Positions 555 through 45,914 are shown, counted from the stretch's first letter. The stretch is DNA of 64,000 bases from Pyrinomonadales bacterium (GCA_038237345.1 JBBRYU010000001.1:375-64374); one strand, 5' to 3'. A program made the numbers and translations. Notes: generated by a model not told the origin, from the sequence alone.

Positions 555-2480
555 TCAGTTTAGAATGAACTCAATCTCTTCACGCAGCCGACCCGGTTGC
601 TGGCTGCGCTTGATCTCGATGGCGCGCACGCGCGCCGCCACATCGAGCAGACTGGCAACGTTACCGGAGAAGAACTCCTGTGACGAATCGGGCGGCGCGG
701 TCTCCCCTTGCGCGCCCTTGCGCTCCTGCCAGTAAGCTTTGATACGCTGCGCGTCGAGCCGCGCGAAGACCTGATCGAACGATTGCTTGCGCTGGTCGAG
801 CCGGATAACGGCTAGCTCATCAAGCGCGGACGTTGCAGCCGCCGCGCGCGTGTCGCCGCCGGGGCGCGTTTGCGTTTGCGCGTTGAGCATCGCTTGCACC
901 AGTGCCGTGTTGTTCGCAACGATCAACTCGTGCCCGCTGAGCGCATAACAGAGTTGCCGTCCAAGCATCGGCAGCGTGAGCGTGCGTATGTGTTGACTGC
1001 CGTCCGTCCATTGCAGAGCAGCGGTTACGCCCGCGATGGTCAGCCGGCTCTGCGCGAGGTTCGCCAGCGCACGCTCGAACGCGGCGCGCTCAAGACTGTC
1101 AGGCGCGGCGAGCGTTAGCGCGGCGGCGCGGCGAAACTCGACGAAGAGCGGCCCCGCATTCGTCTGCGGATTCGCGGCCGTCGCGGCATAGAGCGGACGC
1201 GCGGGCGCGAGCGCGCGTTGCAAGTCAGCGACAAAGCGGCTCTCCGTCGCGGCGCGCAATTCGCCATCGTAGCGCGTGTCGTTCGCGCGCAGACGCGCGT
1301 CCACTGGATCGTCAATCAAACGGTCGTAACCCTGATCGAGATAATCATAGCCGTTGCCATAACCCGCTTCGTCTTCGCCCTCGGCCGCGAAGTTCGAGTC
1401 GTCGTAAGACCGCCAACTCCAATTCGCTCCGTCGCCGCCACCATCATCTTCCGGCGCGCGGTCGAGCAGCGTGTCGCGCAATAGCGCACCCGCTCCGTCA
1501 CGCGCGAGCGCACGCACTTTGTAGTAAGGCGCGTCGGCCGGCATCAGCGCGGCAAGGCGTTGGGCGTCTGCGGCGGGCAGCGACGTGGCCGGTCGTGTCG
1601 TCTGCCCGCTCAACAGAAAACGCCGATGCTCGATCCACTTGCCCGCTTGTATTTCGAGATCGAACAACCCGGCGCGCAGCGTCTGCAACTCCGCTATGTT
1701 GCGCTGCACCCAGTAGCTTTTGAAATACCAATCGCGGTTGAGCGCGGTCTGATCGACCCAGACGGTGGCCAGATGCGGCGCGAGTTCGCGGCTGAGCGTT
1801 TGAAAAGCAGGGTCGTCGGCGAGCCGATCCTTTTGCGCGCGGCCGTTGATGTTGGCGAGTGTGCGCAGCAACAGACGCTCGTCCGTCGCCAGCACGAAAC
1901 GCCCGCGCGCCCAGGCGAACGCCAGCGTCTGTCGCTCGCGCCCCAGATCAACCTCCGCCTCGCGCCGGTAATAACTCGTACCGTCCGGCAACTCCGTCTC
2001 CTCGAAGCCATCCTTGTGCGTGAAGAACGCAGCCGCCAACGACTGTTCTTCACTAACCGGCGCGATGAGGACGAGATCGAGCCGGCCGATGTCGTAGATG
2101 GCGATGGCCGCTTTGTGCTGCGTCGCGGCGGCGAGCGTGCCCGCGTCGAGCGTGAAACCGAGCGCGTCGTTGTACTCCGTCCAGCGTTCGACGAGTTTGA
2201 GCGCGAGATGGCGGCGCGCGAACTGTTGAAAGCTCGTGCTGCTCAGGAGTTGCTGCTTGAATGTGGACTCGTCCCAGAGTTTGACGAGCGCGGGCAAGTC
2301 CGCGCACTGCGCATAGACGAGCGCGCCGCGCGGCAGATCGGCCGCGAGCGCATAGGGGCCGCGCGCCTCCCGCGTCGCACGCGCATAGACAAGCAAACTC
2401 ACGCACACGACGAGCGCGAGCGCAGCGCTAACGATAATAAGCTTTCGGTATTTTCTCCGACGAGTCTGTTTGTTATTCAT
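555..2480 (-). CDS. hypothetical membrane-anchored protein (641 aa), last gene of the 15.5-kb operon
   Basis: ORF 555-2627. The start is taken at MNNKQTRRRKYRKLIIVSAALALVVCVSLLVYA (ATG 2480), which gives a basic N-terminus followed by one TM helix. I recognise no domain. Confidence 0.7.
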   Translation of the reverse strand: MNNKQTRRRKYRKLIIVSAALALVVCVSLLVYARATREARGPYALAADLPRGALVYAQCADLPALVKLWDESTFKQQLLSSTSFQQFARRHLALKLVERWTEYNDALGFTLDAGTLAAATQHKAAIAIYDIGRLDLVLIAPVSEEQSLAAAFFTHKDGFEETELPDGTSYYRREAEVDLGRERQTLAFAWARGRFVLATDERLLLRTLANINGRAQKDRLADDPAFQTLSRELAPHLATVWVDQTALNRDWYFKSYWVQRNIAELQTLRAGLFDLEIQAGKWIEHRRFLLSGQTTRPATSLPAADAQRLAALMPADAPYYKVRALARDGAGALLRDTLLDRAPEDDGGGDGANWSWRSYDDSNFAAEGEDEAGYGNGYDYLDQGYDRLIDDPVDARLRANDTRYDGELRAATESRFVADLQRALAPARPLYAATAANPQTNAGPLFVEFRRAAALTLAAPDSLERAAFERALANLAQSRLTIAGVTAALQWTDGSQHIRTLTLPMLGRQLCYALSGHELIVANNTALVQAMLNAQTQTRPGGDTRAAAATSALDELAVIRLDQRKQSFDQVFARLDAQRIKAYWQERKGAQGETAPPDSSQEFFSGNVASLLDVAARVRAIEIKRSQQPGRLREEIEFILN

Positions 2481-2503
2481 GATGTCGCCTTGCCCGCCGG
2501 ACT

Positions 2504-3454
2504 CTATCTTTCGTCCGCGCCGAAGCGTTGTTGCGCTGCCTGCCAGACCAAATACTGCACACGCATGTTGAGCAGTTTCATGCGCGCCGCCGGCCGCGTG
2601 CGCCAGTGCCCGGCGAGCGCGTGCCATGCGCCGTCGGTTTCGAGCCAGTAAGTGTGGAGCGGCGCGTCGCCGTTGTACTTGATCACTTCAGCAGTCGTTT
2701 CGAGTTGCAGGCGTGGCCCGCTACTGGCTGCGGTGGCGGGCACGACTGTGTAGCGTGTGGTCATACGCTCTTTAACCGCGCTCCAATCCGCGCCGCGATA
2801 GCCCGCGACCGGTTTAATCTCTTCTTCCGTAAACTCCGCCACCTGTTCGAGCACACCGTTAATTAATTTCAGCACGCGCGCTTTGCGCACGTATGTGGTC
2901 GTATCGCCCGTGCTTTCATGCAACACCAACTCGTGCGTGCCGGGTTTGATCAGTTCCGGCAACTCAAGCCAGTTGCGATACGGATAATCCTCAGAGCGCA
3001 GCCACGCCGAGAGCGCGGCGCGCAACTGCCAGCCGCATTCATCGCGTTGCAGGATGAGCGCAACCGGCTGCTCGAAACGCGCGAAGGTGAGCAACGCTTC
3101 CAACTGGCCGTCGCCGTCCAGCTCGGCATAACGCACGCGCGCCTCTGCCGCGCGCTCCGGGTATTCACGGTCGCGCTCGTAGTCGTAATAGACGTGCGCC
3201 ACGCCGGGACGCAGATAAAGCCGCCGCAATGTTTCGCGCCGCACGCCTACGTCCTCGCTCTTGAGCGCGACGAGAATCGCCTCCGGGCTGGCGAAATATG
3301 CTTCCGCCAGACAGCGCGCTGACGTGGTTGGGCCGGGCACGAGTCTGGGCGCGAACGTAAACAGGCCCGCGATAAAAGCGTAGAGGCAGACCGCGAGCAG
3401 ACTGCTGCCGAATCCGAACCCGAACGCGATCATGCGTGAGCGCCAACGCCACAT
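2504..3454 (-). CDS. hypothetical membrane-anchored protein (316 aa)
   Basis: ORF with an N-terminal hydrophobic helix (IAFGFGFGSSLLAVCLYAFIAGLF). It begins 19 nt downstream of the TPR giant and ends 23 nt upstream of the next gene. Confidence 0.7.
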   Translation of the reverse strand: MWRWRSRMIAFGFGFGSSLLAVCLYAFIAGLFTFAPRLVPGPTTSARCLAEAYFASPEAILVALKSEDVGVRRETLRRLYLRPGVAHVYYDYERDREYPERAAEARVRYAELDGDGQLEALLTFARFEQPVALILQRDECGWQLRAALSAWLRSEDYPYRNWLELPELIKPGTHELVLHESTGDTTTYVRKARVLKLINGVLEQVAEFTEEEIKPVAGYRGADWSAVKERMTTRYTVVPATAASSGPRLQLETTAEVIKYNGDAPLHTYWLETDGAWHALAGHWRTRPAARMKLLNMRVQYLVWQAAQQRFGADER

Positions 3455-3473
3455 AACGAGACCTCCCTTTCAT

Positions 3474-6400
3474 TCAAAGCCGCGCGACGAAACGCGCGTC
3501 CACCGTCAGCGCGTGCTTGTACGTCCTAGCTTCCTGCGTCGTCTGTAAACGTGCGATGCGCGCCGCGCTCGCGCGTCGCTCCACATCGCTTGCGAGCAAT
3601 GCGAACCGCGCACGCTCAAACGCGGCTGCGCGCTCCCACTCGCCCACCGCTTCGGCCGCCGCCGACAGCGCGCCAAGCAACTCAAGCCGCGCCGCCACCG
3701 CACGCACCTGCGCACGCGCCGCCAAAGTCTGGAAAGGGCTGTTGCTTGTTGCGGCAACCTCTTGCGCGCTCAGCCGCTCATTATCTTGCGCGTCCGCAGC
3801 GACAGTTTGCGCATCATCACTGCTCGCCTCGTCCGCTCGCGTCTTGCTGGCGGACTGTAATCCAGCATCAAGCTCGGCCAAACGTAATGCTGCGCGCGGC
3901 CGCTGCATAGCGATGTACACGCGCATCAACGCTCGCGCCGCTTCACCTTCGGGCAGACCGAACGCGGGCCACGGATCAATACTCTGACCGGCCGCGAGCG
4001 CGGCGGTTAAACTTACCCGCGCGGCCTCGGCTTGGCTGTCTTGCTGTTCGAGCAAGGCACTGAATGCATATAAGTAAGAGTTCGGATTGATTGTCGTGAG
4101 CTTACTGACAACTGTGCGGGCCTCCGCGCTGCGCCCCGCGCCGACGAGCGCCAACGCCTCAAGCGCCGTCGTCATCTCGCTATCTTTAGTTTGTGCCGCC
4201 ACGCCCGCGCGCAATGTTGACCATGCATCGAGTTTGTCGCCGACTATCTCCGGCGCAAGCCACACTGCCTGCCAGCGTGCGCGGCGCGTCGTCGTGCGAT
4301 CCGCGATGATCGCGGCGAGACCTGCGAGCGCATCATCCTGTTGCCCGTGCGCGGCGAGCAGGCGCACCAACTCGATGCGGTTGACTTCATCCGCAGGCGC
4401 AAGCTCGCGCAAGCGTTGGCGATAATTAATCGCATCGTCGTAGAGACCAGCCGTGGCCGCTGTGTCTGCGGCCAGCACGAGCGCAGTGTTGAGGTTGATG
4501 TTGTAAGCGGCGGCGGGCAACTCGATACCCGTCTCCCCGACCGCGTAAGGCTTGAGCCAGGCGGCGGCGGCGAGCGTCGCTTCTGCGGCAGGCCGTGACT
4601 CCTCCTGCCCTAGCTCAATCATCAGCCGCAACAGCATACGACCGCGCGCCTCATCCTGCGCGTTGAAGGCGAACCGCGCGAGCGCGGCGAAGCGCGGCGC
4701 GTCGTATTGCGCCAACGCGAGCGCACGTGTATAGGCGGCGGCGAGCAACTCTGTCGCCTCGTCGCCGTGCCCTTCCGCGCGCAACAGCGCCACCGCCTCG
4801 TTCAAGCGGGCCGTATCCGGCGGCTTGACGGCCGTGAGTTGCGCGCTGGTCTCAACGCCGACCAGATGCTTGAGCGCGGCGACCGCCTGCGCGCTATGAC
4901 CGGCGCGCAAGTCCACCCGCGCAGCCGCGAGCCGCAGCCACAGCGGGCGCGCATAACGGCCCTTCAATTCCTGTTCGATGCGATTGAGCAACGCACGCGC
5001 TTGCGCCGGCTCGCCTGTGTCGCACAGATAGGTCAGATAGCGACTCGCCCACGTGAGGCGTGCGCTCGTCGGCTCGGAGATTTTGAAATCGTTTTCGTGA
5101 TCAAGCGTCTCTTCAGCTTCGCCGGCGTGCCAATGCTTTTGCAACTGCTCGTTGTAATCATAGTCGCGCTCGTAACTGCTCAAGCCCGCGCTGCGCGCAA
5201 GCAACAACTCGTAAAACGCGCCCTGTGCGCGGCGGGCGACGAGCGCCTCGGTCACGATCAACTCCGGCAACGCGACGCTCGCCGGCACGGCCGCGCACAA
5301 CGCGCGGAAGAACGCTACCTGCGCTTCATTTGCCTCCGGCAGATGCGCGTGCGCCGCAGCTACGATTTCATCCGGCTCAACGCGTGCCGCAGCCGGAGGG
5401 TCGTCCGGCACGCCCGTCGGCCGCGCGTTGAATGAACCACTCAAGGCGCGCAGTAGCGGCTTGTAGTCCGCGAATTGTGCGCGCTCGTCGCCGGTATAAG
5501 TGTTGTGCTCGTCTTCGTTCGCACCTTTGAGTCGCGCGGCTAAGATGGGGAATAACTGCGTGCGCGCTTCCGCCGCCAGTCCGTGCGCGGCGAGCGTGCG
5601 CAGGTAAAGCGCGCAAGCTTCATGCGTAGGCGCGTCGCCCGCGATGAGTTGTCGCCATTCGGCACGGGCGCGCTCGCGTTCGCCGTGCTGGAAGTAAGCT
5701 GCGCCGATGTCTGCGCGCAGTTGCTGATCATCCGGTTGTGCTGCGAGCGCGAGTTGCAGATGTTCGAGCGCGCGGGCCGGGTCGCGTTGCGCGAGATACC
5801 AACGACCAAGTCGCGCCTGCTCGGCAGCATCGTGCGGCCGATTCTCGATCAGCGCGGGCAGCAGCGCGCGGCTCTTGCGGCGTTGTTCAGACTCGTCTGC
5901 CTGATAAAGCCATTGCCCGTAACGCGCGGCGAGTTGGAACCAGTCGTCGCCGACGAGTTGCCGTCCCGTGTCGGGGTGTTGCGTGATCAGTTCGCCGATG
6001 GGTTTGAATTGCAACGCCGTGACGAAATAGTTTTCTCTATCGGCTGTGGTCTCGCCGAGCGCGAGGCTCGCTTCGGCGTTGCGCGCGAGTTGCCATGCGC
6101 GCGGCATGGGCGCGTGCGCAATCGCGTCGTGCGCCAACGCGCCTTCATTGGCCGTCAACAGGAAATTGATCAACCGCACTTGATGCGCTGACGGACGCTC
6201 CGCACGCTGTTGCAACTCCGCGCGGCCTTCAGGGCCTGACTCCAACAGCGCGGCGAAGTAGCGCGTGATGAGCGCGTCGTCCTGCGCGACCGGCGGCGCG
6301 GTCAGCGCACCTGTCTGTTCGTAGTAGGCGCGCAACGCCGACAACTCGCGTCCGCCGTCACCCAAGAGGCGCGCATACTCGGCGCTGAGTTGCGCATAGT

Positions 6401-9400
6401 TGAAGCTGTTGCGCGCGACATCGCGCCCCTGCTCTGTATCTAACAATTCGACGATGCGGGGAAACTCCCCCGCCGCGTTGTAGAAATCTACGAGCGCGTG
6501 CAGTCGCGCGTGATACTGTGCGGCGTCGCCGGCCGCAAAGGCCGCGTCCTTCTGCGCGCGCAAAATCTTCTCTTCGAGCGCACCGAGACCTGCCCGGCGA
6601 CTCAAATTCTGCAACAGCGCGCGTGTGCCGTGCGGATCGTGTGCGCCTTTGAGCGCGTCGTCCGCGCGCGTCTGCCAATCGCGGAAGAGCGCGATCAACT
6701 CATCACCCGTCGCGCGCTCGGCCGCCAACGCGCCCACCGCTTCGGGCAATGCACTGTCAAGCACTTGCAACCGCTCGCGCGCTTTGCTCGCCTGTTTTTC
6801 GTCGCCCCCATCCGCATCAGTCAGCAAACGCTCGCGCAGTTGCCACAGCCGCGCCGCGATTTGATCGAGCGCTTCCTCTGCGCGCAAGGTCTGCACATAG
6901 CCCGCGATATCTGCGGCGCGCAGGTCGCTCTTGTAGGGCGCGGCACTCAGCGCGGCGAACGCCTGCCGGTAAGCGGCGACGGCTTGCGCCTGTTCATCGC
7001 CGTGCAGGCGCGCGGCGGCGGCAAACTGATCGTGCGCGGACTGCGCCGCGGGCGTGGGCTGCGGTTCGGGCGGCAACTTCTGCCGCGCCACTTCGGCTTC
7101 GCGCTTGCGCCCCAACTGCGTGAGCAGCGCGACGGTCTTCCGGATGTATTGTGGATCGTCGTTCGATAGCTCGGCCGCTTGCGCGAGCGCGCCGAGCGCG
7201 CCGTCATAATCCTTGCCGCGTTTGGACACATCTGCGAGCGCCGCATAGAGGTCGAGCATTTCAGGCTGATTGGCGAGCGCGGCGCGATAGTTGGCGGCGG
7301 CGGAGTTGAAGTCGCCATTCGCTTCGTAGATGCGCGCCAGCACGACGTTCCAGCGATAGTTTTTGTAAGCCTGCTGCGCCGTCTGTTTGTAATAAGCGAC
7401 GAGCGCATCGCCGCCGCCATAGCGTTTGACGTAGACCAGCGCGGCAGCGAGCGTCTGTTCGTCGTCCGGGTCGCGGTTGATGATCTCTATGTGCTGCGCG
7501 ACCGCCGCGCGATAATCTTTCAGCCGCGTGAACGCATCGAGCATCTGCGTGCGCAGTTCGGCCACTTGCGCCCGCGTCGTCTTGAGGTCGCCGTCCTGCG
7601 CTTTGATCGCCGCCAGCGTCTCGCTGAAGACCTGCGCGAGCGCCGCGCGCTGTCCGGTGCGTACGTAGAGCCGCGCCAGTTCGTGAAAGACATCCGTATT
7701 CAGCTTGTCCTCTGCATGCAACGCGCGCAGCACACGCTCGGCCGCGCCCGTATGATTCAACTCCAACTCGCGCGCAGCCAGCCGGCGCGCGAAGAGGTAG
7801 TGGAAGCGACCGCGACCGCGCGTCACACCAGCGCGCAGCACGTCGAGCGCCGCCGCGCGCCGCCCCAGCCGCCAGTAGAAATTCGCGGCCTCGCTTAGCA
7901 CACCATAATTCGTCGGATACCGGCCGCGCAGTTCATCCAACACAGACATGGCCGCGCTCGTCGCGCCCGTGCCCGCGTAACTCTCCGCCAGTTGCAAACG
8001 ATAAGAGATGCGCGAATGCGGCCCTTGCGCGCTCTCGGTCAGACGTTTGAGCGCGGCACGCTCGCCGTCCTTATCCTCAACTTCAGAGAAGATCGCACGT
8101 GCGCGTGCAAGAAATTGCTGCTCGTGTCGGGCCGTGATCTCTTGCCGCAACAGGGCCGACGCTTCCGTCCGCTGCCCCGCCGCTTGCAATAACGCGGTGT
8201 AGCCAAGCACGAGTGGCGCATCAGCGCGCACGTTACGCCGCGCCTGCGCCCACGCCTGTCGCAACTGCGCGGGGATACCCGGTCGCTGATAGAGCGTGAG
8301 CAGTCGCCGCTTCGCGCGCTCGTAATCATCCGCGTTCTCAGCGAGCGCGTATGCGTACTCGCCGAGCGCGGCCGGCAGTTGGTGTTGCGCTTCGAGGATC
8401 GCGCCGGCCTGGAAAGCGTAGCGCGTCTGATCATTCATCTCTGCGCGCAACTGTTTAATGATGCGCAGGGCGTCCGCATATTGGAAGTAGTCCCAATAGA
8501 CGGTCGCCGTCGCGAGATACGTCTCCGGCTCGCCACGCCCTAAGGTGATGAGTTGTTCCCACTCGCCGCGGGCGCGGTCGTAATTGCCCAACTCGGCCTG
8601 CAACTCACCGGCGCGCGTGCGATAGTCGGCGGCGGCGGGCGCGGCGTCCGCGAGCGCGTGGCTCGTGGCCGCGGCCTCTTCTAAGAAACGCCGATTGTGC
8701 TGTCCCAGCGAGCGTGTGAAAGCGATGAGTCGTTCAGCATATTCGGGCGTGTTCGGGTAGAGACGATTCAATTCGCGGTAGGCATCAATCGCGTCCTCAT
8801 AGTCCGAGAGCCACGCGGCGGCATCGGCGCGAAAAAGCTTATAAGGCAACACGGCCAACGCGCCCGGATCATTTTCCGCCTGCGTGCGACAACGCGCGCG
8901 CGCCTGTGCGAGATAAGCGCGCAACTCATTTTGCTTGGCGAGGTAAGCGAGAAACTGCTCGCGCGTCTCGCGCGAAACGAAAAAGTATTCGGCCAGCAAC
9001 GCGCGCCACTCACCCCAACGCTCATGCGCGCTGTAGAACTGCAACAGCCCTGCGACGAAGCTCATGTTGTGCGGGAAACGTTCGTGCGCGCGACTGTAGA
9101 GACCGAGATAAAGCCCCGCCTCGAAGCTCGCGGCATCGGCGTATGCGCGCGCGGCAACGAACTGCTCGAGATAGGCGGCCGCCTCTTCGTCATTCATCTG
9201 CGCCAACAACTCGCGCGAGAACTGCGCAAACTCCTGCTTCCGCTCGCGGCGCAGATACCAACGCGCCATGCGGTCGCGCCACACGTTGTTGGGAAATTGT
9301 TTCAACGCGGCTTGATAGACGCGCAACTGTTCGTCGGCCAGCTTCGTCTGCCCGAGCCATTGCAGCATCTGTTCGTATAGCCCCGGCTCGGCCGGATACT

Positions 9401-11459
9401 TTTTGATCTCGGCGCTGTAGAGCGCGAGTATGTCGGTGGTGCGCTCGTCGCGCGCGAGCGCGGCAACGTAGCGTTCAAGCACCGCCGCGTAGGTGACGCT
9501 GTCCGCGCGCTCGCCCGTGCGTGTGCGCCAGCGCGCGGTCGGCACGGCCAAGTGATCCTGATACTGCGGGTGATCGTAGTAGTAATAATTTCCGCTCGTC
9601 GGCTCGCCGTGGCCCGGAATGTCTATGCCGCGATTCGAGTCCGGCGGATAGGCGGCGGGCGCAGGCTGCGCGTCAGTCGGTTCGGCGTTGACGTTGAGCG
9701 TCTGCACCTGTTGGGCTTCATCGGCGGCGGACTGCGCCTGTTGCGCGGCGGGCACGAGCGGCGTGCCGGGCTGGCGGTGTTGGCCGAGGTGATCGAGGAT
9801 GCGTTGATAGAGCGCAGGCTCTTTGTCGTGCTGTTCCAGCGTCACGTAGCAGTCGGCCAGCTTCAACGCCACTTCGGGAAATTGCGGCGCGTCGCCGTAA
9901 CGCCCCTCGAACTCGGCGAGCGTCGCGGCGGCCACATCCAGCTCGCCCGTCGCCGTGTAGAGCCGCACGATGTCGAGATACATCTGCGCCAACTCCGGCG
10001 CGGTCGGATACTCCTGCTTATATGCGCTGAAGATGCGATACGCGGCGGCGCGGTTGAAATACTTGACTGCGTCGCCTTCTTCCTTGCTTAACTCAGACTG
10101 CGGATTTGTGTCCGAGAAGAGCAGCGAGAGGATGCCGCCCGTGATGCCCGGATGCGGATCGGCGGTGGCGATGTCCTGATAAAATTTCAGATCGCCGGCG
10201 GTCAACGCCAGCCGCTCGCCATTCGCATCGGAGAGCAGCGCAAACAATTGATAGAGCACCTTCGCGCGCAACTCGCCGCCCGGCTTGAGACCGCCCTGCA
10301 AGTAGAGCGTGTAGAGAAAACGCGACGCGGCATCGGCGTAGCCTGCCGCTAAGAGCATGCGCGCGATGGTGGCCAACTCTTCCGGTTGCCATTGCACCCC
10401 GCGCGCCGCCCGCGCTTTCTCCAATTGCACGAAGATGTCCGGGTCTGTCTCGTAGGCGTGTTGCGTGAAGTGCGCGAGCCGCACGGCCGCATCGTAGTTT
10501 GTCGGGTCGCGCCGAAAAGCGGTGCGCAACTCGCGCCCGTAAGCGCGAAAGCGATCATGGTCTTTGAGGAATTCGTAGAAGGATTCGGACAACTCGTCCG
10601 GCCAAAACGGATCGAAGGCGGCTTGATAAATTTGCTCCACCTCGCGCGTTCGCCCCAGCGTGTCGAGTATCTCCGCTTCTTTTACGAGCAATTGCGCCGA
10701 GCGCGCGGGAAAGCGCGTCTTGTGTGCGCGCAGCACTTGCAGGGCCGCCGCGTTATTCCGCTCAGCTATTAATTTATCTATGTACTGCTCGATGATCTCG
10801 TAGGCGGACGGGTCTTGCGCGATCACACCTTCGTAAAATTCAGGCGCGAGATATTTTGCCAATCGATGCACGCGCGCCAACTCGACCAACCGCCTCAGCA
10901 AACTTGCCTGCGCCGCGACGGGTGCGCGCGTGAGCAGACGCTCAAGCACGGCCGCTTCTTGCGCGAATTCGGCGCGACGGTCGTAGAAGGCAGCGAGTGT
11001 TTCGAGCGCAGTGTCGCTGTCGTGTTGCAGCGCGACGTAATGCTCCAACTCGCGCGTGGCCTCGTCAGCGCGGCCGAGTTTCTCGTCGAGCTGCGCGAGT
11101 TTGAGAAGTATTTCAGGCTCGTCCGGATGTTTCGTTTGCACGTCGGCAAGCCGGTTGCGCGCTTCCGCTGTCGGGTACGGCACGAGCGCCTGTGCGCCGA
11201 AGAATTCCGTGCGAGTGAACAGGGCCGTTTCGATGAGCGTTGCCGGTTCGTGCTCGCGCGCAGCGACGACGCGGTGCGGTTGCACGATGGCGAGCGCGGC
11301 GTAGGCGCAGAGGCCGGCGAGCAAGAGCAGGCGCGGGACGGAGATAAGCCTCACGCAAAGACGCAAAGACGCAAAGGCGGACGCAAAGCGATCTCCTGCG
11401 CGCTCGCTGCGCGTTTCTCTTTGCGCCTTCGCGTCCTTGCGTGAGCCTGTCCGTTTCAT
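3474..11459 (-). CDS. giant TPR-repeat protein (up to 2661 aa) with an N-terminal membrane anchor
   Basis: Uninterrupted 7986-nt ORF. It has Ala/Leu/Arg/Tyr-rich TPR-like periodicity throughout and no Walker A motif. The hydrophobic segment is RLISVPRLLLLAGLCAYAALAIV. The start is uncertain: ATG 11459 overlaps the upstream stop as ATGA, while an alternative in-frame GTG at 11354 would place the palindromic element 11350-11445 in an intergenic gap. Confidence 0.85.
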   Translation of the reverse strand: MKRTGSRKDAKAQRETRSERAGDRFASAFASLRLCVRLISVPRLLLLAGLCAYAALAIVQPHRVVAAREHEPATLIETALFTRTEFFGAQALVPYPTAEARNRLADVQTKHPDEPEILLKLAQLDEKLGRADEATRELEHYVALQHDSDTALETLAAFYDRRAEFAQEAAVLERLLTRAPVAAQASLLRRLVELARVHRLAKYLAPEFYEGVIAQDPSAYEIIEQYIDKLIAERNNAAALQVLRAHKTRFPARSAQLLVKEAEILDTLGRTREVEQIYQAAFDPFWPDELSESFYEFLKDHDRFRAYGRELRTAFRRDPTNYDAAVRLAHFTQHAYETDPDIFVQLEKARAARGVQWQPEELATIARMLLAAGYADAASRFLYTLYLQGGLKPGGELRAKVLYQLFALLSDANGERLALTAGDLKFYQDIATADPHPGITGGILSLLFSDTNPQSELSKEEGDAVKYFNRAAAYRIFSAYKQEYPTAPELAQMYLDIVRLYTATGELDVAAATLAEFEGRYGDAPQFPEVALKLADCYVTLEQHDKEPALYQRILDHLGQHRQPGTPLVPAAQQAQSAADEAQQVQTLNVNAEPTDAQPAPAAYPPDSNRGIDIPGHGEPTSGNYYYYDHPQYQDHLAVPTARWRTRTGERADSVTYAAVLERYVAALARDERTTDILALYSAEIKKYPAEPGLYEQMLQWLGQTKLADEQLRVYQAALKQFPNNVWRDRMARWYLRRERKQEFAQFSRELLAQMNDEEAAAYLEQFVAARAYADAASFEAGLYLGLYSRAHERFPHNMSFVAGLLQFYSAHERWGEWRALLAEYFFVSRETREQFLAYLAKQNELRAYLAQARARCRTQAENDPGALAVLPYKLFRADAAAWLSDYEDAIDAYRELNRLYPNTPEYAERLIAFTRSLGQHNRRFLEEAAATSHALADAAPAAADYRTRAGELQAELGNYDRARGEWEQLITLGRGEPETYLATATVYWDYFQYADALRIIKQLRAEMNDQTRYAFQAGAILEAQHQLPAALGEYAYALAENADDYERAKRRLLTLYQRPGIPAQLRQAWAQARRNVRADAPLVLGYTALLQAAGQRTEASALLRQEITARHEQQFLARARAIFSEVEDKDGERAALKRLTESAQGPHSRISYRLQLAESYAGTGATSAAMSVLDELRGRYPTNYGVLSEAANFYWRLGRRAAALDVLRAGVTRGRGRFHYLFARRLAARELELNHTGAAERVLRALHAEDKLNTDVFHELARLYVRTGQRAALAQVFSETLAAIKAQDGDLKTTRAQVAELRTQMLDAFTRLKDYRAAVAQHIEIINRDPDDEQTLAAALVYVKRYGGGDALVAYYKQTAQQAYKNYRWNVVLARIYEANGDFNSAAANYRAALANQPEMLDLYAALADVSKRGKDYDGALGALAQAAELSNDDPQYIRKTVALLTQLGRKREAEVARQKLPPEPQPTPAAQSAHDQFAAAARLHGDEQAQAVAAYRQAFAALSAAPYKSDLRAADIAGYVQTLRAEEALDQIAARLWQLRERLLTDADGGDEKQASKARERLQVLDSALPEAVGALAAERATGDELIALFRDWQTRADDALKGAHDPHGTRALLQNLSRRAGLGALEEKILRAQKDAAFAAGDAAQYHARLHALVDFYNAAGEFPRIVELLDTEQGRDVARNSFNYAQLSAEYARLLGDGGRELSALRAYYEQTGALTAPPVAQDDALITRYFAALLESGPEGRAELQQRAERPSAHQVRLINFLLTANEGALAHDAIAHAPMPRAWQLARNAEASLALGETTADRENYFVTALQFKPIGELITQHPDTGRQLVGDDWFQLAARYGQWLYQADESEQRRKSRALLPALIENRPHDAAEQARLGRWYLAQRDPARALEHLQLALAAQPDDQQLRADIGAAYFQHGERERARAEWRQLIAGDAPTHEACALYLRTLAAHGLAAEARTQLFPILAARLKGANEDEHNTYTGDERAQFADYKPLLRALSGSFNARPTGVPDDPPAAARVEPDEIVAAAHAHLPEANEAQVAFFRALCAAVPASVALPELIVTEALVARRAQGAFYELLLARSAGLSSYERDYDYNEQLQKHWHAGEAEETLDHENDFKISEPTSARLTWASRYLTYLCDTGEPAQARALLNRIEQELKGRYARPLWLRLAAARVDLRAGHSAQAVAALKHLVGVETSAQLTAVKPPDTARLNEAVALLRAEGHGDEATELLAAAYTRALALAQYDAPRFAALARFAFNAQDEARGRMLLRLMIELGQEESRPAAEATLAAAAWLKPYAVGETGIELPAAAYNINLNTALVLAADTAATAGLYDDAINYRQRLRELAPADEVNRIELVRLLAAHGQQDDALAGLAAIIADRTTTRRARWQAVWLAPEIVGDKLDAWSTLRAGVAAQTKDSEMTTALEALALVGAGRSAEARTVVSKLTTINPNSYLYAFSALLEQQDSQAEAARVSLTAALAAGQSIDPWPAFGLPEGEAARALMRVYIAMQRPRAALRLAELDAGLQSASKTRADEASSDDAQTVAADAQDNERLSAQEVAATSNSPFQTLAARAQVRAVAARLELLGALSAAAEAVGEWERAAAFERARFALLASDVERRASAARIARLQTTQEARTYKHALTVDARFVARL
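11350..11445. repeat. REP-like imperfect palindromic element
   Basis: Left arm ctcacgcaaagacgcaaagacgcaaaggcggacgcaaagcg. Right arm cgctgcgcgtttctctttgcgccttcgcgtccttgcgtgag. The 9-bp termini are perfect (ctcacgcaa / ttgcgtgag), and there is an internal tandem gcaaagac. Confidence 0.5.
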
Positions 11460-13903
11460 CAGCGTGCCAACACTGCGATCCGCAGTTCCGCGCTCGACTG
11501 GTTATGCGCGAAGTCTTCGGCCGTGACCGTCAACACATACTGCCCGGCGGCCAGCGTTGCCGGCACACGCAAGACGCCCACGTTCGTCTGTTCTTTGTCC
11601 GACCAGACAAGCTGCGCGGGCTGTGCGCCATAAAGTTTTGCGATCAAGCGCACGGTGTCGCTGTCCGCCCCGACGCGCACGCGCAACTCATCGCCCGCGC
11701 GCACGGTCTCGGCCGCTACGCTCACGCGCAGCTTCGGCGCATGACTGTCCACGACGAAACTCTTCTCTTCCTGATAGCCGCGCCCGCCCTTGTCCGTGAG
11801 CAGCAGGCGACAACGATACGCGCCGTCAGGCAGCCACGCGGGCGCGAGGAAGCGCACTTCCCAGACGCCCGCCGCCGGCAGATATTGCAACGGCAGAGTC
11901 TCGCCGAATGGCAGCACGGCGAAGACAGCGTTGATTGACTCGTCGGTCTTGACGCGCAAGACGGGATCGCCCGGTTGGATCAGGCGCGGGCGCAACAGTG
12001 CGCGCGGCGCGGCGAGGAACGCGGTGTAGGGCGTGGCGAACTTATATTTTTCGGCGAGGCGGATGATCTCCGCAATGTAGTCTTCGCGCTCGCCGTCCAA
12101 ATCCATCGCGCGCAAGAGCGCATCCACGCGGGCGCGCGCCCAGAGACGCGGCACGTGCTCGTGCGTGTCGTCGAATTCGGGCAGCGCAACGGTGCGCGCC
12201 AGCTTGATCGTCTGCGCGCCGTATTGACCTTGCACCGCGATGGTCGTTTGCGGCGCGGGCTGTTTGTAGCGACCGACGAAGGCCACGCTTGAGCCGTCGA
12301 AGCTGTGCGCGTCCGGCGCGGCATAGATTTGATAGAAAACTTTCTTGTCAGCGGTGAAGCGTAAGTCTTCGATGTTGGGCGTGCCGACTTTGGCGAAGAA
12401 GAGGCGCAGTTGCGTCGTGATGTCTTCGGTCTCGCGTGCCCCGGCGAAATAGCCGTGCGTCTTTTGCGCGAGCGTTTCCAACAGCGTGCGATTGGCGTCG
12501 CCGCCAAGCGCGAAGGCGAAGACGCGCACCGGGGCGATGCTCTGTGCATCTTTGCGCGGCCCGCTTGGCTTTTGTCCGTCGAAGAGACGAATGATCTCCT
12601 TCAAGTCGGTTGTGCCGAGCGTCGGGTTGGCGTCGGAGATGAGGACGATGCTGCGCTCGCCCGGCGGGAGCGCGGGCGCAAGTTCCAACGCTTTGGTGAA
12701 TGCTTTGCGCAGGTCTGTGCCGCCGCCGAGCATAGAGCCTTTGACGAAGGCCAGCGCTTGCTCGACGTGCTCAGGCGTCGCGGTGAACGGCGCGGGCGCA
12801 AGCACGTTTGTGTGTTCGTTGAAGAGGACGAGATTGAAACTGTCTTGCGGCGTCAGCCCATGCAGAAAATAGTCGAGCGCCTCAACCGCGCGAGCCAGTT
12901 TATCGCCGTACATCGAGAGCGACGTGTCGCAGAGCAAGACAAGATTGCGCGGTTGCTGAAATTGCGGCTGCGCGGCATTGCTTTGGCCGCCGGATTGCGC
13001 GTGTTGTTCGTTGAAGATGGCGCGGGCGGCGAAGTAGCCGTCGGGGTTGCGCGCGGCGAGCGCGGGATCGCGCAGATCATAGGCCGTGATCTGTTCGGGC
13101 GCGCGGTAGGCGATGAAGGAGAGCGTGCTGGCGGGCACATCGATCCGGTAGTCGAACGAGAAATCTTCTTGTAACGCGAGGTCGCGTGCTTGCAAGTCGG
13201 CCGTGAACTCGTGTGCATTGCTCGCGGTCACGCCGAGCGGATATGCGCCCGTCTGCGGCGCGAGCGGCGTGAACGGATAATCGCTCAGCACGTGCAGGTG
13301 CAAGTTGAATTCGCCGACGTGCTGCGGATCGCCAAACGAAGGTTTCAAGGGGAAGGTGAAATGCGAGACGAGACCTTCGACCGGCAGCGTCTCTGTGTAC
13401 TCAAGCTCGACGCGCTTCGTGCCGTAGGCGGGGATGGGCCAGACTTTGGCGTTGAAGGCGGCGCGTCCTTCGTGCTCGTCGTCCTGTTGCAAGAGACCGG
13501 GGTCGAGTTGCGGTTGCTTGAGTTGCGTGTAGATGGCGTTGGCGCGGCGCTTCTCCAGCATCACGCCGGGGATGCGTGTGTCGCCGTCCCACACGGCGAA
13601 GTCGGAGACAGAGGCCGGCGGCGGCAGCGCGAACAGGAACTTGCCTTCGAGCGCCTGCGCCGTGTGGTTGTCGAAGATTTGCCGGACGCGCACGCGCGCG
13701 TGCTGATTGTCGATCAGCACATCCACGTTCATCACCTGCAACGAGAGCAGACGCTCGTCCGGCTTATCTTTCAGCGACGAAGGCACGAGCACGCCCGATT
13801 GCGCCGCGCTCCGTTGTGCGGGCCAACAGAGGGCCGCGCCGAGCGCGAGACCAAGCAAGGCAATAACGAACCTGGTGCGAGAACTATGGTGTGTCGCTCT
13901 CAT
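11459..13903 (-). CDS. VIT domain + von Willebrand factor type A domain protein with a C-terminal Ig-like region, secreted
   Basis: VIT-like segment LSLQVMNVDVLIDNQHARVRVRQIFDNHT...FAVWDGDTRIPGVMLEKRRA. vWA MIDAS-type segment LVLLCDTSLSMYG. The start is taken at MRATHHSSRTRFVIALLGLALGAALC (ATG 13903, signal-like), only 2 nt after the upstream stop. Confidence 0.85.
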   Translation of the reverse strand: MRATHHSSRTRFVIALLGLALGAALCWPAQRSAAQSGVLVPSSLKDKPDERLLSLQVMNVDVLIDNQHARVRVRQIFDNHTAQALEGKFLFALPPPASVSDFAVWDGDTRIPGVMLEKRRANAIYTQLKQPQLDPGLLQQDDEHEGRAAFNAKVWPIPAYGTKRVELEYTETLPVEGLVSHFTFPLKPSFGDPQHVGEFNLHLHVLSDYPFTPLAPQTGAYPLGVTASNAHEFTADLQARDLALQEDFSFDYRIDVPASTLSFIAYRAPEQITAYDLRDPALAARNPDGYFAARAIFNEQHAQSGGQSNAAQPQFQQPRNLVLLCDTSLSMYGDKLARAVEALDYFLHGLTPQDSFNLVLFNEHTNVLAPAPFTATPEHVEQALAFVKGSMLGGGTDLRKAFTKALELAPALPPGERSIVLISDANPTLGTTDLKEIIRLFDGQKPSGPRKDAQSIAPVRVFAFALGGDANRTLLETLAQKTHGYFAGARETEDITTQLRLFFAKVGTPNIEDLRFTADKKVFYQIYAAPDAHSFDGSSVAFVGRYKQPAPQTTIAVQGQYGAQTIKLARTVALPEFDDTHEHVPRLWARARVDALLRAMDLDGEREDYIAEIIRLAEKYKFATPYTAFLAAPRALLRPRLIQPGDPVLRVKTDESINAVFAVLPFGETLPLQYLPAAGVWEVRFLAPAWLPDGAYRCRLLLTDKGGRGYQEEKSFVVDSHAPKLRVSVAAETVRAGDELRVRVGADSDTVRLIAKLYGAQPAQLVWSDKEQTNVGVLRVPATLAAGQYVLTVTAEDFAHNQSSAELRIAVLAR

Positions 13904-13905
13904 TT

Positions 13906-16035
13906 TTACTCGAAGTAACTCGCGCCAATGCGCGCGATGCCGTTCGTCGTGCCGAAGTAAACATGCTGCCCGTCGCCCGTCACGCTGAGCACGGTCGGCG
14001 CGGGCAGTTCCGCTTGCAGATGCGTCCACTTTTGCGTGTGTAAATCCAGAACCCACACGCCATCGAGCGTGCCCGCATAGAGCCGCGCGCCATCGCTCCA
14101 CAGGGCGTTTGGGTTGACGACGAACCCGCCGGTCTCGGCCGCGAACGGACGCAACTCGCCCGCCGGCATCAACTCAAATACGCCGCCGCCATACGTGCCG
14201 ATGAACAGGCGCGGCCCCGCAGCGCAGAGGGCCGTCACCCAGTTGTGCGTGAGTTTGGAGTTAGCGTCCGTGAAGACGCGCACGACGCGCCCCGCCGCGA
14301 CTTCGGCCAGCCCGCCGAGCGTGCCGACGAAGATCGTGCGGCCGCGCGGCAACACTGCATAGAGGCTGTTGCTCGGCAACCCTTGCACGGTCGTCAATCC
14401 CCGCCAACGCCCTTGCGCGCCCAAGCTAAGACCGCGACTCGTCGCGCAGACCAACTCCGCACTCTGCCCATGATGCGCCGCGCCCGCCGCAGTTGTTTGC
14501 CCCGCGTTCCCTTGCGCGGGCAGCACAGCGACGCCGGTGATGGCATTGCTCAACAGGCCATCGCTTGTCGTCAGGCTTGTCTCATGCAACGCCGCATCGA
14601 AGTGCGCGAGTCCCTGTGCGGTGGCCACATGCATCGTGTTCGTGTCGGCCGCGAATGAGAGCGCGTTGATCTCGCGCGCCGTTTCTGTGGCCAGATGTGT
14701 GAGCCGGCGACCGTCGGGCGCGAGCAGGTCTATGCCGGCGCGGAAACTGCCGGCCCAGAGACGACCCGCACCGTCGAGCGCGAGCGCGGCGACCGTGTTA
14801 CTCGCCGGCCCGCGTTGTTGCGCGTCGGGCTGCATGAACGGCATGAGCGCGAAGAGGGCGCAAGTTGTGCGCGCTGAACTAGAGTTTGTCGTGTCAGACG
14901 TGTTGTCATTTGTGCGCCAGACGCCAACGCTCGTGAGCAGCCAGAATTGATTATCAAGCGCGAGCAGGCGGCAATCAGTCGAACTTTCATTCGCCGCTTG
15001 CGCGTCGCGCCATATGATAGGTTGGAGTTGCGGCCCGCGCGTCGCGTGCTCTGCCAACACGAACAATTTGCCGTCGTCCTGACAGAGCAGCACGCGCCCG
15101 CCGAGTTGTTGCAGGCTGGCGAGCGACGGCAGCGTGGCGATGAGGCGAAACGGCTGCGCCCGCGCCTGTTCAGCCGCTAACAACTCATCGACACGCGCGA
15201 CCGCGAGTCCGAAATCGGTAGCGACCAGCACGCGCGCGTCGTCCGCCGCTATGCCAACCACGCGGGCAGAGGGCAGCCCCGCAGCCGTCGTGAAGTGCAG
15301 CCAACGTCCGGCCTCGCGCACCCACAGTCCGTCGGCGTATGTGCCGACGTAGAGCCGCGCGCCCGCGCGCATGAGACAGTTGATCGCTGTCAGCCGGCGC
15401 TCGTCCGCGCCCGCTTTCAGTTCTGTGAACTGCCGCCCGTCGAACTCGATGAGACCGCCCGCGAACGTGCCGATGAGCAACCGGCCCACATCGTCGAGCA
15501 GCGCGGTGATCGCCTGCGGCTGGCGGTCGGGCCAACGATAACTCTCGAAGTGTGCGCCGTCGAAGGTGACGAGACCTTGCGTGCGCGTGCCGATGAACAG
15601 CTTGTCATGCCACACGATCAGGCTCGTGAGATCGCTTTCGGGCAGACCGTCCAGCACCGTGTAGTGATGCACGGGCGCGCCTGTCTGCGTCAATTCGAGC
15701 AGCCCGCCGTCGGTCGCGGCGAAGTACGAATCGTGCAGCCGCGCGACGGCGCGGACACGTTGTGTGCTTTGCCAGATTTGCAACTCCGGCCGGTTGAGCG
15801 TCAGGTGTGGTTTTATCTCAAACGGAATGACGTGCTGTCGCTCAAGCCGCGCCCGTTCGTCGGCGAGGCGCGCACGCGCATCTCGCTGCACGCGCCCCGC
15901 GCCGAACAGACAGACGAGCGGCAACAAAACTGCCAGCCCGACGAGCAGCCTGCGCTGGCGCACACACGCGGCACGCGTGCGCGCTATGCTCCCGCGCAGA
16001 GCAAGAGTGTACGCAGGCAAACTCGCCCGGCTCAT
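13906..16035 (-). CDS. membrane-anchored beta-propeller repeat protein (two-component-regulator-propeller-like repeats)
   Basis: ORF 13906-16320. Recurring motifs of the type GLPSNSLYAV, GGLIEFDG, TLDGVWVLD and YFGTTNGIARI occur at roughly 45-aa intervals. A TM helix (LLVGLAVLLPLVCLFGAG) follows the proposed start MSRASLPAY (ATG 16035). The start is uncertain. Confidence 0.75.
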   Translation of the reverse strand: MSRASLPAYTLALRGSIARTRAACVRQRRLLVGLAVLLPLVCLFGAGRVQRDARARLADERARLERQHVIPFEIKPHLTLNRPELQIWQSTQRVRAVARLHDSYFAATDGGLLELTQTGAPVHHYTVLDGLPESDLTSLIVWHDKLFIGTRTQGLVTFDGAHFESYRWPDRQPQAITALLDDVGRLLIGTFAGGLIEFDGRQFTELKAGADERRLTAINCLMRAGARLYVGTYADGLWVREAGRWLHFTTAAGLPSARVVGIAADDARVLVATDFGLAVARVDELLAAEQARAQPFRLIATLPSLASLQQLGGRVLLCQDDGKLFVLAEHATRGPQLQPIIWRDAQAANESSTDCRLLALDNQFWLLTSVGVWRTNDNTSDTTNSSSARTTCALFALMPFMQPDAQQRGPASNTVAALALDGAGRLWAGSFRAGIDLLAPDGRRLTHLATETAREINALSFAADTNTMHVATAQGLAHFDAALHETSLTTSDGLLSNAITGVAVLPAQGNAGQTTAAGAAHHGQSAELVCATSRGLSLGAQGRWRGLTTVQGLPSNSLYAVLPRGRTIFVGTLGGLAEVAAGRVVRVFTDANSKLTHNWVTALCAAGPRLFIGTYGGGVFELMPAGELRPFAAETGGFVVNPNALWSDGARLYAGTLDGVWVLDLHTQKWTHLQAELPAPTVLSVTGDGQHVYFGTTNGIARIGASYFE

Positions 16036-16519
16036 TCGTTCCAGTCGTGGTCGTTCGTTGTCGCGCACGTCTTGGTCTATGTTGTTCGTCTGTACATGGC
16101 GGCCCGTTAACCGCATCACGCGGATTATCAGTGCGGAGCGGGCTAAGGCGACACGTGCCGCCGGACAGTGCGCGCTCCGAGTCAGTACGGCGCGCAGCCC
16201 GGCGTGTTGAACAGCTACGCATGTGGGTTGGCACACGCGCGCGTATGTGGCTAGACACAGTCTGAGCTTGCTATGACCGAGTTGCAGAGCACGCAGTCGG
16301 TTTACCATGGCGCGGAACAAATTATCTGTCTTCGCGTCCGGGGCATCTACGAGTACTCATACGTGGCGCGGGCCGCCACGCCGGGCCGTATCATTGTGTC
16401 CCCGCCCAAAGCCGAAGAGATGTACAATCCTGAAACCTTCGGGCGCGGCGCGACCGACCGCGTGATCGTTGAATGACTGATGAGCAAGAGCGCGACCTCG
16501 CCGCGCGCAGACCAAGCCA

Positions 16520-17554
16520 ATGACTGACTCAACCTCACTCTTTTCCGCGCTGCTCGCGCAAAAGCAACAAGCTTACGGCAAGGCTTTGGAGTACGCCTGC
16601 GCCGCCGCACTGCTCGACTGGCTGCATGCGCACGGGACGCTAAGCTCGCTCGCCGACTCCGATGCGGCGCAGACTGCCCGCCGCCGCTACGACGCGCTCG
16701 CGCCCGAGACACGCGCCAAATACGACCTCGGCGCGACGGCCGGCGTGTGCCTGCTCGCGCGCCTTGAGCCTGTGTTGCAAACGCCCGCCGCGAGTGATCG
16801 CTTCACGTTGCGCATACAAGCGGACGCGCAGGGCGAAGCGGGCGATGTGCGCGATGTCGTCGCGGCGAACGAGCGCGGATGGACGCTCGGCGTCTCGGTC
16901 AAGCACAACAACGACGTGGCGAAGAACCCGCGCCTCGCGCGTACGCTCGACTTCTGTCAACACTGGACGACGCGCCCCTGCGACGCCGCCTACTTCGCCG
17001 CGATCAAGCCTGTCTTCACCGAACTGGAACAACTCGCCACCGTCGGCGCGCACTGGAGTTCGCTCAATCTCACCGAACAGGAGAAGGCCGCGCGCTTCTA
17101 TCGCCCCGTCATGACGGCGCTCGCGGCGCAACTCGAACGCCTCGCGCGCCAGCACGCGGATGCGCCCGCCGCCCTCACCGCCTACTTCCTCGGCCGCCCG
17201 GACTTCTACAAACTGATCGTCTCCATGCCCGACCGCACGACGACCGTGCAAGCATTCTCTTTCGCGGGCACGCTCGGCCGCGGCGTAAGCATTGAAAATC
17301 AAAGCGCAGTCAAACAGTCGCCAGACACAGACAAGCCGGCTGTCAACATCGCCCGCCTGTCCTTGCCCGGCAAGCTGAACATCGTCGCATTCAAACCACG
17401 TTCCGCCAACACCATCTTGCTGACCTTTGATCAAGGTTGGGCGTTCTCCCTGCGCCTGCACAATGCCTCGTCACACGTCGAAGCAAGTCTCAAGCTCGAC
17501 GTGCGGCTGACCAGTGCGCCGCCCGAGCTCGTTAAGTTGCAAGTACGGTGGTAG
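16520..17554 (+). CDS. possible HaeIII-family (PD-(D/E)xK) restriction endonuclease; solitary
   Basis: 344-aa ORF. From memory, the N-terminal GKALEYACAAAL and the core GDVRDVVAANERGWTLGVSVKHNNDVAKNPRL resemble the HaeIII-family signature (D...S/ExK followed by KHN..A.K..RL). This is not verified by alignment. Confidence 0.5.
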   Translation: MTDSTSLFSALLAQKQQAYGKALEYACAAALLDWLHAHGTLSSLADSDAAQTARRRYDALAPETRAKYDLGATAGVCLLARLEPVLQTPAASDRFTLRIQADAQGEAGDVRDVVAANERGWTLGVSVKHNNDVAKNPRLARTLDFCQHWTTRPCDAAYFAAIKPVFTELEQLATVGAHWSSLNLTEQEKAARFYRPVMTALAAQLERLARQHADAPAALTAYFLGRPDFYKLIVSMPDRTTTVQAFSFAGTLGRGVSIENQSAVKQSPDTDKPAVNIARLSLPGKLNIVAFKPRSANTILLTFDQGWAFSLRLHNASSHVEASLKLDVRLTSAPPELVKLQVRW

Positions 17555-24500: not shown

Positions 24501-25108
24501 TGCTTCAACTCCCGCGCGCTCGGCCCGCTCGCCAGATACGGCGCGAGTTGCCGCCGTAAGTTTTCCCGCGCACGCGCGAGCCGCGCCTTGACCGTGCCTA
24601 CGTCCGCGCCGACCACCGCGGCGATCTCCGCCAGACTCAACTCTTCATACTCGAACAGCACGAGCGCCTCGCGTTGCAACGGCGACAAATTCATCACCGC
24701 GCGTTGGACGACTTCGGCCAACTCGGCCGCGAGCAGTTGGCGCAAAGGCTGTTGCGCTTCCTGCGTGTGCGGCTCGTCATGCAAATCATCGAGCGCGATC
24801 TCGACGCGCGGGTGGCGAAACTGTTTGAGCGCGAGATTGCGCGCCGCCGCGTAGAGATACGTGCGCAGACTGGCGCGCGTCGGATCGAAGCTGTCGGGTC
24901 GTTTGAGCAAACTGAGAAAGCAATCGTGCGTTACGTCTTCGGCGCGCGTCGCCGAGCCGAGCAAGCGATAGGCGAAGCGATAGATTGCATCGCGGTAACG
25001 CTCGTAGAGCAAGAGGAACGCGGCCTCTTCGCCCCGGCGCGCGCGCTCGATGAGCGCCTCGTCTGTCGTCTGATCGGGCAACCTGCTTCGGCTCGTTTCC
25101 GGCCCCAC
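24497..25108 (-). CDS. ECF-type RNA polymerase sigma-70 factor
   Basis: Region 2 (LLYERYRDAIYRFAYRLLGSATRAEDVTHDCFL) and region 4 (LSPLQREALVLFEYEELSLAEIAAVVGADVGTVKARLARAR). Confidence 0.9.
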   Translation of the reverse strand: MGPETSRSRLPDQTTDEALIERARRGEEAAFLLLYERYRDAIYRFAYRLLGSATRAEDVTHDCFLSLLKRPDSFDPTRASLRTYLYAAARNLALKQFRHPRVEIALDDLHDEPHTQEAQQPLRQLLAAELAEVVQRAVMNLSPLQREALVLFEYEELSLAEIAAVVGADVGTVKARLARARENLRRQLAPYLASGPSARELKQ

Positions 25109-25324
25109 GGCTTGCTCACGGAGGTATTACCGCGACGATGGCAAAAGAGACGCTGCGGAGGCCAAATATTTTGCGTCGCTCTGCCACCGATGTTGTCGCT
25201 TGGAAGCCGACATACTCCGACGCGGTTGCATGAACGCGAGCCCCGGCGCGAAAAATAAATATCCGCCGTGTGGAAACCTGACCCGAACAAGCGCGCATCA
25301 CAGCGCCAATTCGGAGGTAGCCCC

Positions 25325-45899: not shown

Positions 45900-45914
45900 G
45901 ATGTCACCGATAGT

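Follow-up and report, generated by a model that had tools for sequence, protein, structure and literature searches.

What might five envelope genes do together when none of their products carries a recognisable enzyme or motor? The 64,000-nt stretch of DNA analysed here, which we call the window, belongs to the genome of an uncultured member of the Pyrinomonadales (Acidobacteriota, Blastocatellia). Between positions 555 and 16035 it holds a 15.5-kb cluster of five minus-strand open reading frames (ORFs), here named genes A to E in reading order, which encode a beta-propeller protein, a VIT-vWA protein, a 2,661-aa tetratricopeptide repeat (TPR) giant, and two proteins, D and E, of no recognised family. 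The building blocks (vWA, TPR, propeller) are familiar, and vWA/TPR envelope clusters already form a loose category, exemplified by Bat; our literature searches found no description of such a cluster. We consider it probable that the five genes encode one co-functional extracytoplasmic assembly. The best explanation overall, which we advance tentatively and at a little under even chances, is a Blastocatellia-specific assembly, anchored in the inner membrane and without its own energy source, that has a structural role at an envelope glycan or glycolipid.

The five ORFs are present at the positions given by a first-pass annotation of the window: gene A at 13906-16035 (709 aa), gene B at 11459-13903 (814 aa), gene C at 3474-11459 (2661 aa), gene D at 2504-3454 (316 aa), and gene E at 555-2480 (641 aa), all on the minus strand. 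Direct reading of the sequence bore out three of the four junctions described there, namely 2 nt between A and B (TAA aa ATG), 19 nt between C and D, and 23 nt between D and E. The fourth, given as a 4-nt ATGA overlap of B and C, is in fact a 1-nt overlap (TGATG). Longer alternative starts are present for A, B, and E, but homologue lengths and alignments favour the shorter ones, and for E the homologue lengths back the 641-aa version. Each gene has homologues, at 30-87% identity, in many genomes, and A to E are therefore, on comparative grounds, real genes rather than chance ORFs. The cluster also looks native because its GC content (0.642) matches that of the rest of the window (0.619). The tight junctions and the single upstream intergenic region make for an operon-like layout which, together with the conserved gene order described below, suggests that the five genes are co-transcribed as one operon.

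To follow the cluster across genomes, we scanned GTDB species genomes with B, obtaining 80 loci with flanks of up to 10 kb where the contig allowed, and added 3 metagenome loci. B identity ranged from 48 to 89% across the 80 genome loci, and the closest relative was a Pyrinomonadales metagenome-assembled genome (MAG) with a B identity of 86-87%. The first-pass annotation had named a lack of co-conservation as a ground for abandoning its proposal. When all five proteins were searched by tblastn, nearly all loci of sufficient length showed A-B-C-(D)-E in this order on a single strand, at identities from ~85% down to ~30%. The flanks were variable: among 52 loci with at least 3 kb of upstream sequence, the commonest upstream gene family occurred in only 9, and a search of the flanks for conserved partner genes found none. 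Conserved order within non-conserved flanks therefore marks a functionally linked module. Could the genes nonetheless be functionally unrelated neighbours, or some of the ORFs spurious? The order survives deep divergence (C and E down to ~30% identity) amid changing flanks, genes overlap at their start and stop codons, and all five families are clearly conserved, so that we give this reading almost no credence. Chance co-location is effectively refuted by the conservation data.

The cluster had been described as a five-gene unit, which held in so far as it is a real cluster; what is conserved is three to four genes plus a clade-specific D rather than a fixed five. Propeller gene A is present in most clusters. 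Gene D occurs only in a closer Pyrinomonadaceae subset, and many other loci have E straight after C. A divergent variant, found at three loci (L066, L067, and L070), consists only of B-C-E, tightly packed behind unrelated genes. More remote E homologues (profile E-values of ~1e-41 to 1e-52) directly follow a TPR gene of 1,910-2,445 aa. At two such loci, L084 and L085, VIT-vWA and Reg_prop genes were also called upstream, several junctions overlap by 1-17 nt, and the start of E overlaps the stop of C by 4 nt; at a third, L083, the upstream calls are short and unannotated. By this comparison the deepest core is B, C, and E, with A nearly universal and D a clade-specific addition. For B, D, and E, and for C in its N-terminal part, homologues came from Acidobacteriota records only, mostly labelled Pyrinomonadaceae, Pyrinomonadales, or Blastocatellia.

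Two MAGs carry the cluster twice. One (JBFLVQ01) has a full A-B-C cluster at L036 and the divergent B-C-E variant without A at L066, and the other (JBBQGM01) has two cluster copies, L003 and L004, which suggests either that the systems are paralogous or that the bins mix strains. At L074 there are extra genes between B and C. We rejected these as components of the system, as they are an insertion of an IS200-type transposase and a PLD-family (NgoFVII-like) nuclease (L074 8441-10191). A mobile element inserted at the B/C junction can thus be tolerated by the operon or disrupt it.

Every product has exactly one N-terminal hydrophobic segment, in agreement with the signal or anchor helices that had been reported. 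Those of A, C, D, and E look like signal anchors, and that of B, alone among the five, resembles a cleavable signal peptide (…AQRSAA/QS). All five products are accordingly predicted to be extracytoplasmic, four of them held at the inner membrane and B soluble, presumably in the periplasm. The domain calls of the first-pass annotation were recovered, with Reg_prop in A, VIT, vWA, and Big_13 in B, and only TPR-type matches in C. So was its claim that the cluster has no enzymatic or ATPase component, for we found no such match in Pfam or NCBIfam and no Walker A or HExxH motif. No catalytic or NTPase domain could be recognised in any product, so that the assembly must act through binding. The claim holds for known catalytic domains; the G-D-P motif that is invariant in B is a self-cleaving, glycan-coupling site in its ITIH relatives. 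A role in defence was considered and rejected, as none of the five proteins matched PADLOC. Mapping of each protein to a characterised, unrelated function, the other outcome that had been named as fatal to the proposal, was found for none of the five. Co-conservation and the lack of a characterised function together support the candidacy of the cluster as an undescribed envelope scaffold, presumably a physical complex in the periplasm or at the outer envelope.

Protein B provides the clearest lead to function. It is built of a VIT domain, a vWA domain with a metal ion-dependent adhesion site (MIDAS), an ITIH-type post-vWA region, and two Ig-like domains. Pfam returned VIT at 6.3e-19 (68.6 bits against a cut-off of 26.5), VWA_3 at 4e-17, and Big_13 at 1e-6, with VWA_2 and VWA also above their cut-offs. 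The best solved relatives in the PDB, by sequence, were the human heavy chains ITIH4 (8.6e-25) and ITIH1 (5.8e-17); with phmmer, B residues 316-631 align to ITIH4 and 316-644 to ITIH1, a span that covers the vWA domain and the LWA and Y-F-x-TP-T motifs. The MIDAS motif, D326-T-S-L-S330 (12914-12928, minus strand), has its D, S, and S invariant in 74 aligned homologues, in which the downstream MIDAS residues are also kept (Thr in 95%, Asp in 100%). In common with ITIH1-4 and the NCBIfam family TIGR03788, B runs from VIT through a vWA with complete MIDAS to the post-vWA motifs "LWA…LL" and "Y-F-x-TP-T" and then to G-D-P. From these matches we regard B as a true ITIH-type heavy-chain homologue. 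It differs from ITIH in that two Ig-like domains take the place of the ITI_HC_C region at its end, and in having GDPV in place of GDPH. Its score against TIGR03788, a marine proteobacterial sortase target, was 177 bits, below the cut-off of 552; no LPXTG match was reported for B, and no sortase domain was present in the gene products scanned in the cluster and the rest of the window. Unlike animal ITIH or sortase systems, B is encoded with a giant TPR protein and with E, neither of which has a counterpart there.

The G-D-P motif lies in G645-D646-P647-V648 (11960-11971, minus strand), a candidate Asp-Pro self-cleavage site in which G, D, and P are present in 100% and V in 92% of the 74 homologues. 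As P-G-D-P, it stands between the ITIH-like TPYT motif of B, which it follows at a distance of 14 residues, and the Ig-like domains. The GDPH of ITIH3 undergoes autocatalytic Asp-Pro cleavage, and the resulting C-terminal Asp anhydride esterifies chondroitin sulfate (PMC8267560). The G-D-P of B and the GDPH of ITIH may well occupy equivalent positions, although the solved ITIH chains allowed no alignment.

The architecture of B could also belong to an adhesin. Under this alternative the cluster would be a surface adhesion or gliding/attachment system in which B is an exported vWA adhesin that attaches to external substrates by its MIDAS, while A, C, and E would only hold, present, or mask it at the envelope, in loose likeness to CglB with the TPR-rich Glt complex of Myxococcus or to PilY1-type vWA/propeller adhesins. 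TPR giants and vWA adhesins do co-operate in myxobacterial gliding. B alone has a cleavable signal peptide, an intact MIDAS joined to Ig-like domains is typical of adhesins, and the closest NCBIfam family of B is a surface-sorted VIT-vWA protein. Against this, the cluster and its conserved neighbourhood have no gene for an outer-membrane barrel, secretin, pilin, sortase, LPXTG/PEP-CTERM protein, or motor (TolQR/AglRQS), and NCBIfam gave no match to Glt proteins. We therefore rate an adhesion system as unlikely, while still giving it appreciable weight.

The myxobacterial co-operation of TPR and vWA proteins is touched on in PMC12204202, which describes inner-membrane-tethered vWA "force transducers" whose genes accompany those for TolQR-like motors and an uncharacterised TPR gene. 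Our cluster is similar in that an envelope vWA protein is encoded beside a TPR gene. Unlike the force transducers, B has a cleavable signal peptide and no transmembrane helix, and because the signal peptide replaces that helix, B lacks the transmembrane-helix SHLS motif needed for motor coupling. There were no matches to MotA/ExbB/TolQ or ExbD/TolR near the cluster.

We also asked whether the cluster could be a Bat-like (aerotolerance) or vWA-MoxR stress system, with the genes for its AAA+ ATPase and DUF58 partner located elsewhere in the genome. Bat operons likewise encode vWA and TPR proteins with membrane anchors, and the Bat proteins are thought to form a membrane-associated complex, although their function is poorly defined (PMC3557215). 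The resemblance ends with this membrane-associated vWA and TPR set. The first-pass annotation had already set the cluster apart from these systems, noting the lack of a MoxR ATPase. BatA_N, BatD, MoxR (AAA_3), and DUF58 all went unmatched among the five proteins, the gene products of the 64-kb window that were scanned, and the conserved flanks. B is an ITIH-type VIT-vWA protein, secreted by way of a cleaved signal peptide, and not a transmembrane-anchored BatA or BatB. The scale differs too, with a single TPR protein of 2,661 aa, and the propeller and the E family are foreign to Bat operons. More than 80 loci keep their own composition and never gain an ATPase gene. These observations leave a Bat-like or MoxR-type system very improbable.

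Protein A points in the direction of glycans. An N-terminal membrane anchor, a single transmembrane-like segment at residues ~27-50, is followed by a Reg_prop-type twin beta-propeller (Pfam Reg_prop 1.8e-9, with 22 of 22 family members matching). A profile of 22 homologues matched PDB entries 4a2l (1.8e-30) and 3v9f (1.5e-26), which are periplasmic sensor domains of Bacteroides hybrid two-component systems, and more weakly PorZ (5m11, 7.6e-6). Pfam gave no HisKA, HATPase, or Response_reg match in A, which besides its propellers has only a short N-terminal tail and the anchor. A thus shares an extracytoplasmic Reg_prop twin propeller with the Bacteroides hybrid sensors (e.g., BT4663, PDB 4a2l) and with PorZ of the type IX secretion system, but it lacks the Y_Y_Y, histidine kinase, receiver, and DNA-binding domains of the former and the type IX C-terminal domain of the latter. 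By homology, A is a ligand-binding ectodomain on a membrane anchor. The known Reg_prop twin propellers of these sensors and PorZ bind oligosaccharide or anionic lipopolysaccharide.

Protein C begins with one hydrophobic signal/anchor segment and continues as an all-alpha, TPR-like solenoid; its 2,661 residues gave TPR-class matches only, in both Pfam and NCBIfam. All C homologues start with the signal/anchor segment, followed by an invariant EFFG motif. Conservation peaks at residues ~350-500, 650-750, 900-1000, and 1300-1400 and is lowest in the last ~600. For the N-terminal 700 aa, homologues were found only in Acidobacteria/Blastocatellia records.

A solenoid of this kind might serve as a scaffold for peptidoglycan or envelope-biogenesis enzymes encoded elsewhere, with C recruiting synthases or hydrolases much as LpoA, CpoB, and NlpI do on a small scale. 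Residues 471-556 of C do resemble CpoB/YbgF, but the match is weak (30 bits), far below the cut-off, and of a generic TPR kind. At locus L084, one gene for a transpeptidase-domain protein and one for a SpoIID-domain protein (L084 11686-13275) adjoin or overlap the E homologue at its end; this link to the cell wall is seen at that single locus, and the downstream genes differ in every other locus inspected. A peptidoglycan scaffold is therefore, in our judgement, quite improbable.

Proteins D and E constitute two families without a Pfam or NCBIfam model. The first-pass annotation had been unable to place either one, and so were we: there were no Pfam, NCBIfam, or PADLOC matches, and profile searches of the PDB were empty even at E ≤ 1. 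For E, we found a family of 651 clusters (50% identity) at E ≤ 1e-3 among 1.84 billion representatives; a Pfam search with ten remote relatives was likewise empty. The AlphaFold2 model of E (pLDDT 69, pTM 0.66) has an anchor helix and two alpha/beta modules with a disordered acidic linker between them. Its only significant structural neighbour was TP0453 (Foldseek E 6e-6, probability 1.0, TM-target 0.45-0.48, root-mean-square deviation ~7 Å). TP0453 is an outer-membrane-associated protein of T. pallidum whose amphipathic helices insert into bilayers, and it has been proposed to be a lipid/glycolipid carrier (PMC5421087). The predicted alpha/beta/alpha fold of E broadly resembles that of TP0453, with modest TM-scores, but E has no sequence similarity to it, is 2.5 times larger, has two modules, and carries an N-terminal transmembrane anchor rather than a lipobox.

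Two further ideas about E were dropped. A relationship to DUF3352 received an hhalign probability of 0.6%. An internal duplication was not supported either, as the half-versus-half alignment score fell within the range of the shuffled controls. Upstream of the cluster in one locus is a gene for a 587-aa DUF3352 protein (L071 4844-6607), the N-terminus of which (anchor, then "vP..vLafvQi.sL") resembles that of E.

In the AlphaFold2 model of D, which is confident (pLDDT 85), an anchor helix is accompanied by a small helical region and a beta-rich domain. We collected 157 homologues, and all of those named by taxon are from Acidobacteria/Pyrinomonadaceae; an exact look-up of D in a contig index gave no match. 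Foldseek returned propeller blades as the best matches, at non-significant values (E 3e-3, TM < 0.3). We rejected D as an FG-GAP/integrin-alpha-like propeller, since these matches were non-significant and the "DGDG" of the window protein is not kept in the family consensus.

We favour a structural role at a glycan or glycolipid because two of the four core proteins have glycan-related relatives (ITIH for B, and the hybrid two-component and PorZ propellers for A) and a third, E, resembles a proposed lipid/glycolipid carrier. In such an assembly, the solenoid of C, whose size and conservation pattern suit a platform, would serve as one, and the docking sites presumably lie in its conserved N-terminal half. 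E would be the constant, translationally coupled partner of C at the membrane, and D a lineage-specific add-on. The MIDAS metal site of B would bind an acidic ligand, and the propeller of A would provide a second ligand-binding site, probably for a glycan. Together the proteins would bind, organise, or tether an envelope glycan or glycolipid such as an exopolysaccharide, capsule, or wall polymer. As a specific mechanism, the tethering of an envelope glycan or glycolipid layer is in our view possible but somewhat unlikely. It would be analogous to the way in which ITIH heavy chains stabilise hyaluronan matrices.

The analogy can be taken further, as B may cleave itself at the invariant Asp646-Pro647 bond and then be covalently coupled. 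In the most specific version that we considered, the giant TPR platform would position the ITIH-like B, which would self-cleave at Asp-Pro and esterify itself, or be transferred, onto an envelope polysaccharide. We think this version improbable. If it were true, the cluster would be an envelope machine of a sort not described before in bacteria, a prokaryotic counterpart of animal heavy-chain-hyaluronan chemistry, and would suggest a bacterial origin of that chemistry.

Several observations weigh against a structural role at a glycan or glycolipid and against the coupling chemistry. The motif in B is GDPV, not GDPH, and may be a simple structural turn that opens the Ig-like domain. The match of E to TP0453 is at the level of fold only, and the model from which it comes is of moderate confidence. 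A solenoid of ~75 TPR repeats is hard to fit across the periplasm. The link to cell-wall genes occurs at L084 only, and a conserved link to polysaccharide-synthesis genes was not seen in any locus inspected. Finally, all homologues are metagenome-assembled, with no cultured carrier among them.

Blastocatellia are abundant in dry, nutrient-poor soils. To our knowledge, almost nothing is known of their cell envelope, and here is a 15.5-kb, strongly conserved, lineage-wide operon all of whose parts are binding or scaffold modules predicted to lie outside the cytoplasm, C being among the largest exported TPR proteins. It also offers a testable lead, namely a bacterial ITIH homologue that keeps both the MIDAS and the G-D-P motif, the latter of which drives covalent protein-glycan coupling in animals. 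If the coupling chemistry operates, bacterial envelope or matrix organisation would be tied to a mechanism for which animal extracellular matrix has so far been the only known setting. Even otherwise, the cluster has clear limits and would suit a first attempt to study Blastocatellia envelope architecture by genetics.

The region upstream of gene A is a divergent intergenic region of 484 bp (16036-16519), which we presume to contain the promoter of the operon. A simple scan of this region found no sigma-70-like site; the only promoter-like sites in the scan fall between E and the next gene, a DUF1272 gene located 108 nt downstream of E. Promoter and terminator scans gave counts no better than those for shuffled sequence, and an Rfam scan found no RNA element in or upstream of the operon. 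On the other side of the intergenic region, divergent from gene A, is a HaeIII-type restriction endonuclease gene (16520-17554, plus strand; Pfam RE_HaeIII 3.5e-73). Its neighbours are gene A and genes for an isochorismatase and a MOSC-domain protein, with no DNA methyltransferase gene to be seen next to it; the endonuclease may be an orphan, or its methylase may be encoded elsewhere.

Two other features of the window deserve mention. The gene for a NiFe hydrogenase large subunit (44625-46496, minus strand) is interrupted by an in-frame TAA at 45917-45915. The ORF at 45915-46496 corresponds to profile positions 1-85 and that at 44625-45899, in the same frame, to positions 152-508, which could reflect a pseudogene, an assembly error, or a true split. 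At 23019-31519 the window encodes a 2,083-aa bacterial alpha-2-macroglobulin (MG2, bait region, A2M, TED, and receptor domains, with a weak T2SSG-like stretch), and this gene adjoins a divergent pair encoding an extracytoplasmic function (ECF) sigma factor and a 493-aa TonB_C-domain protein.

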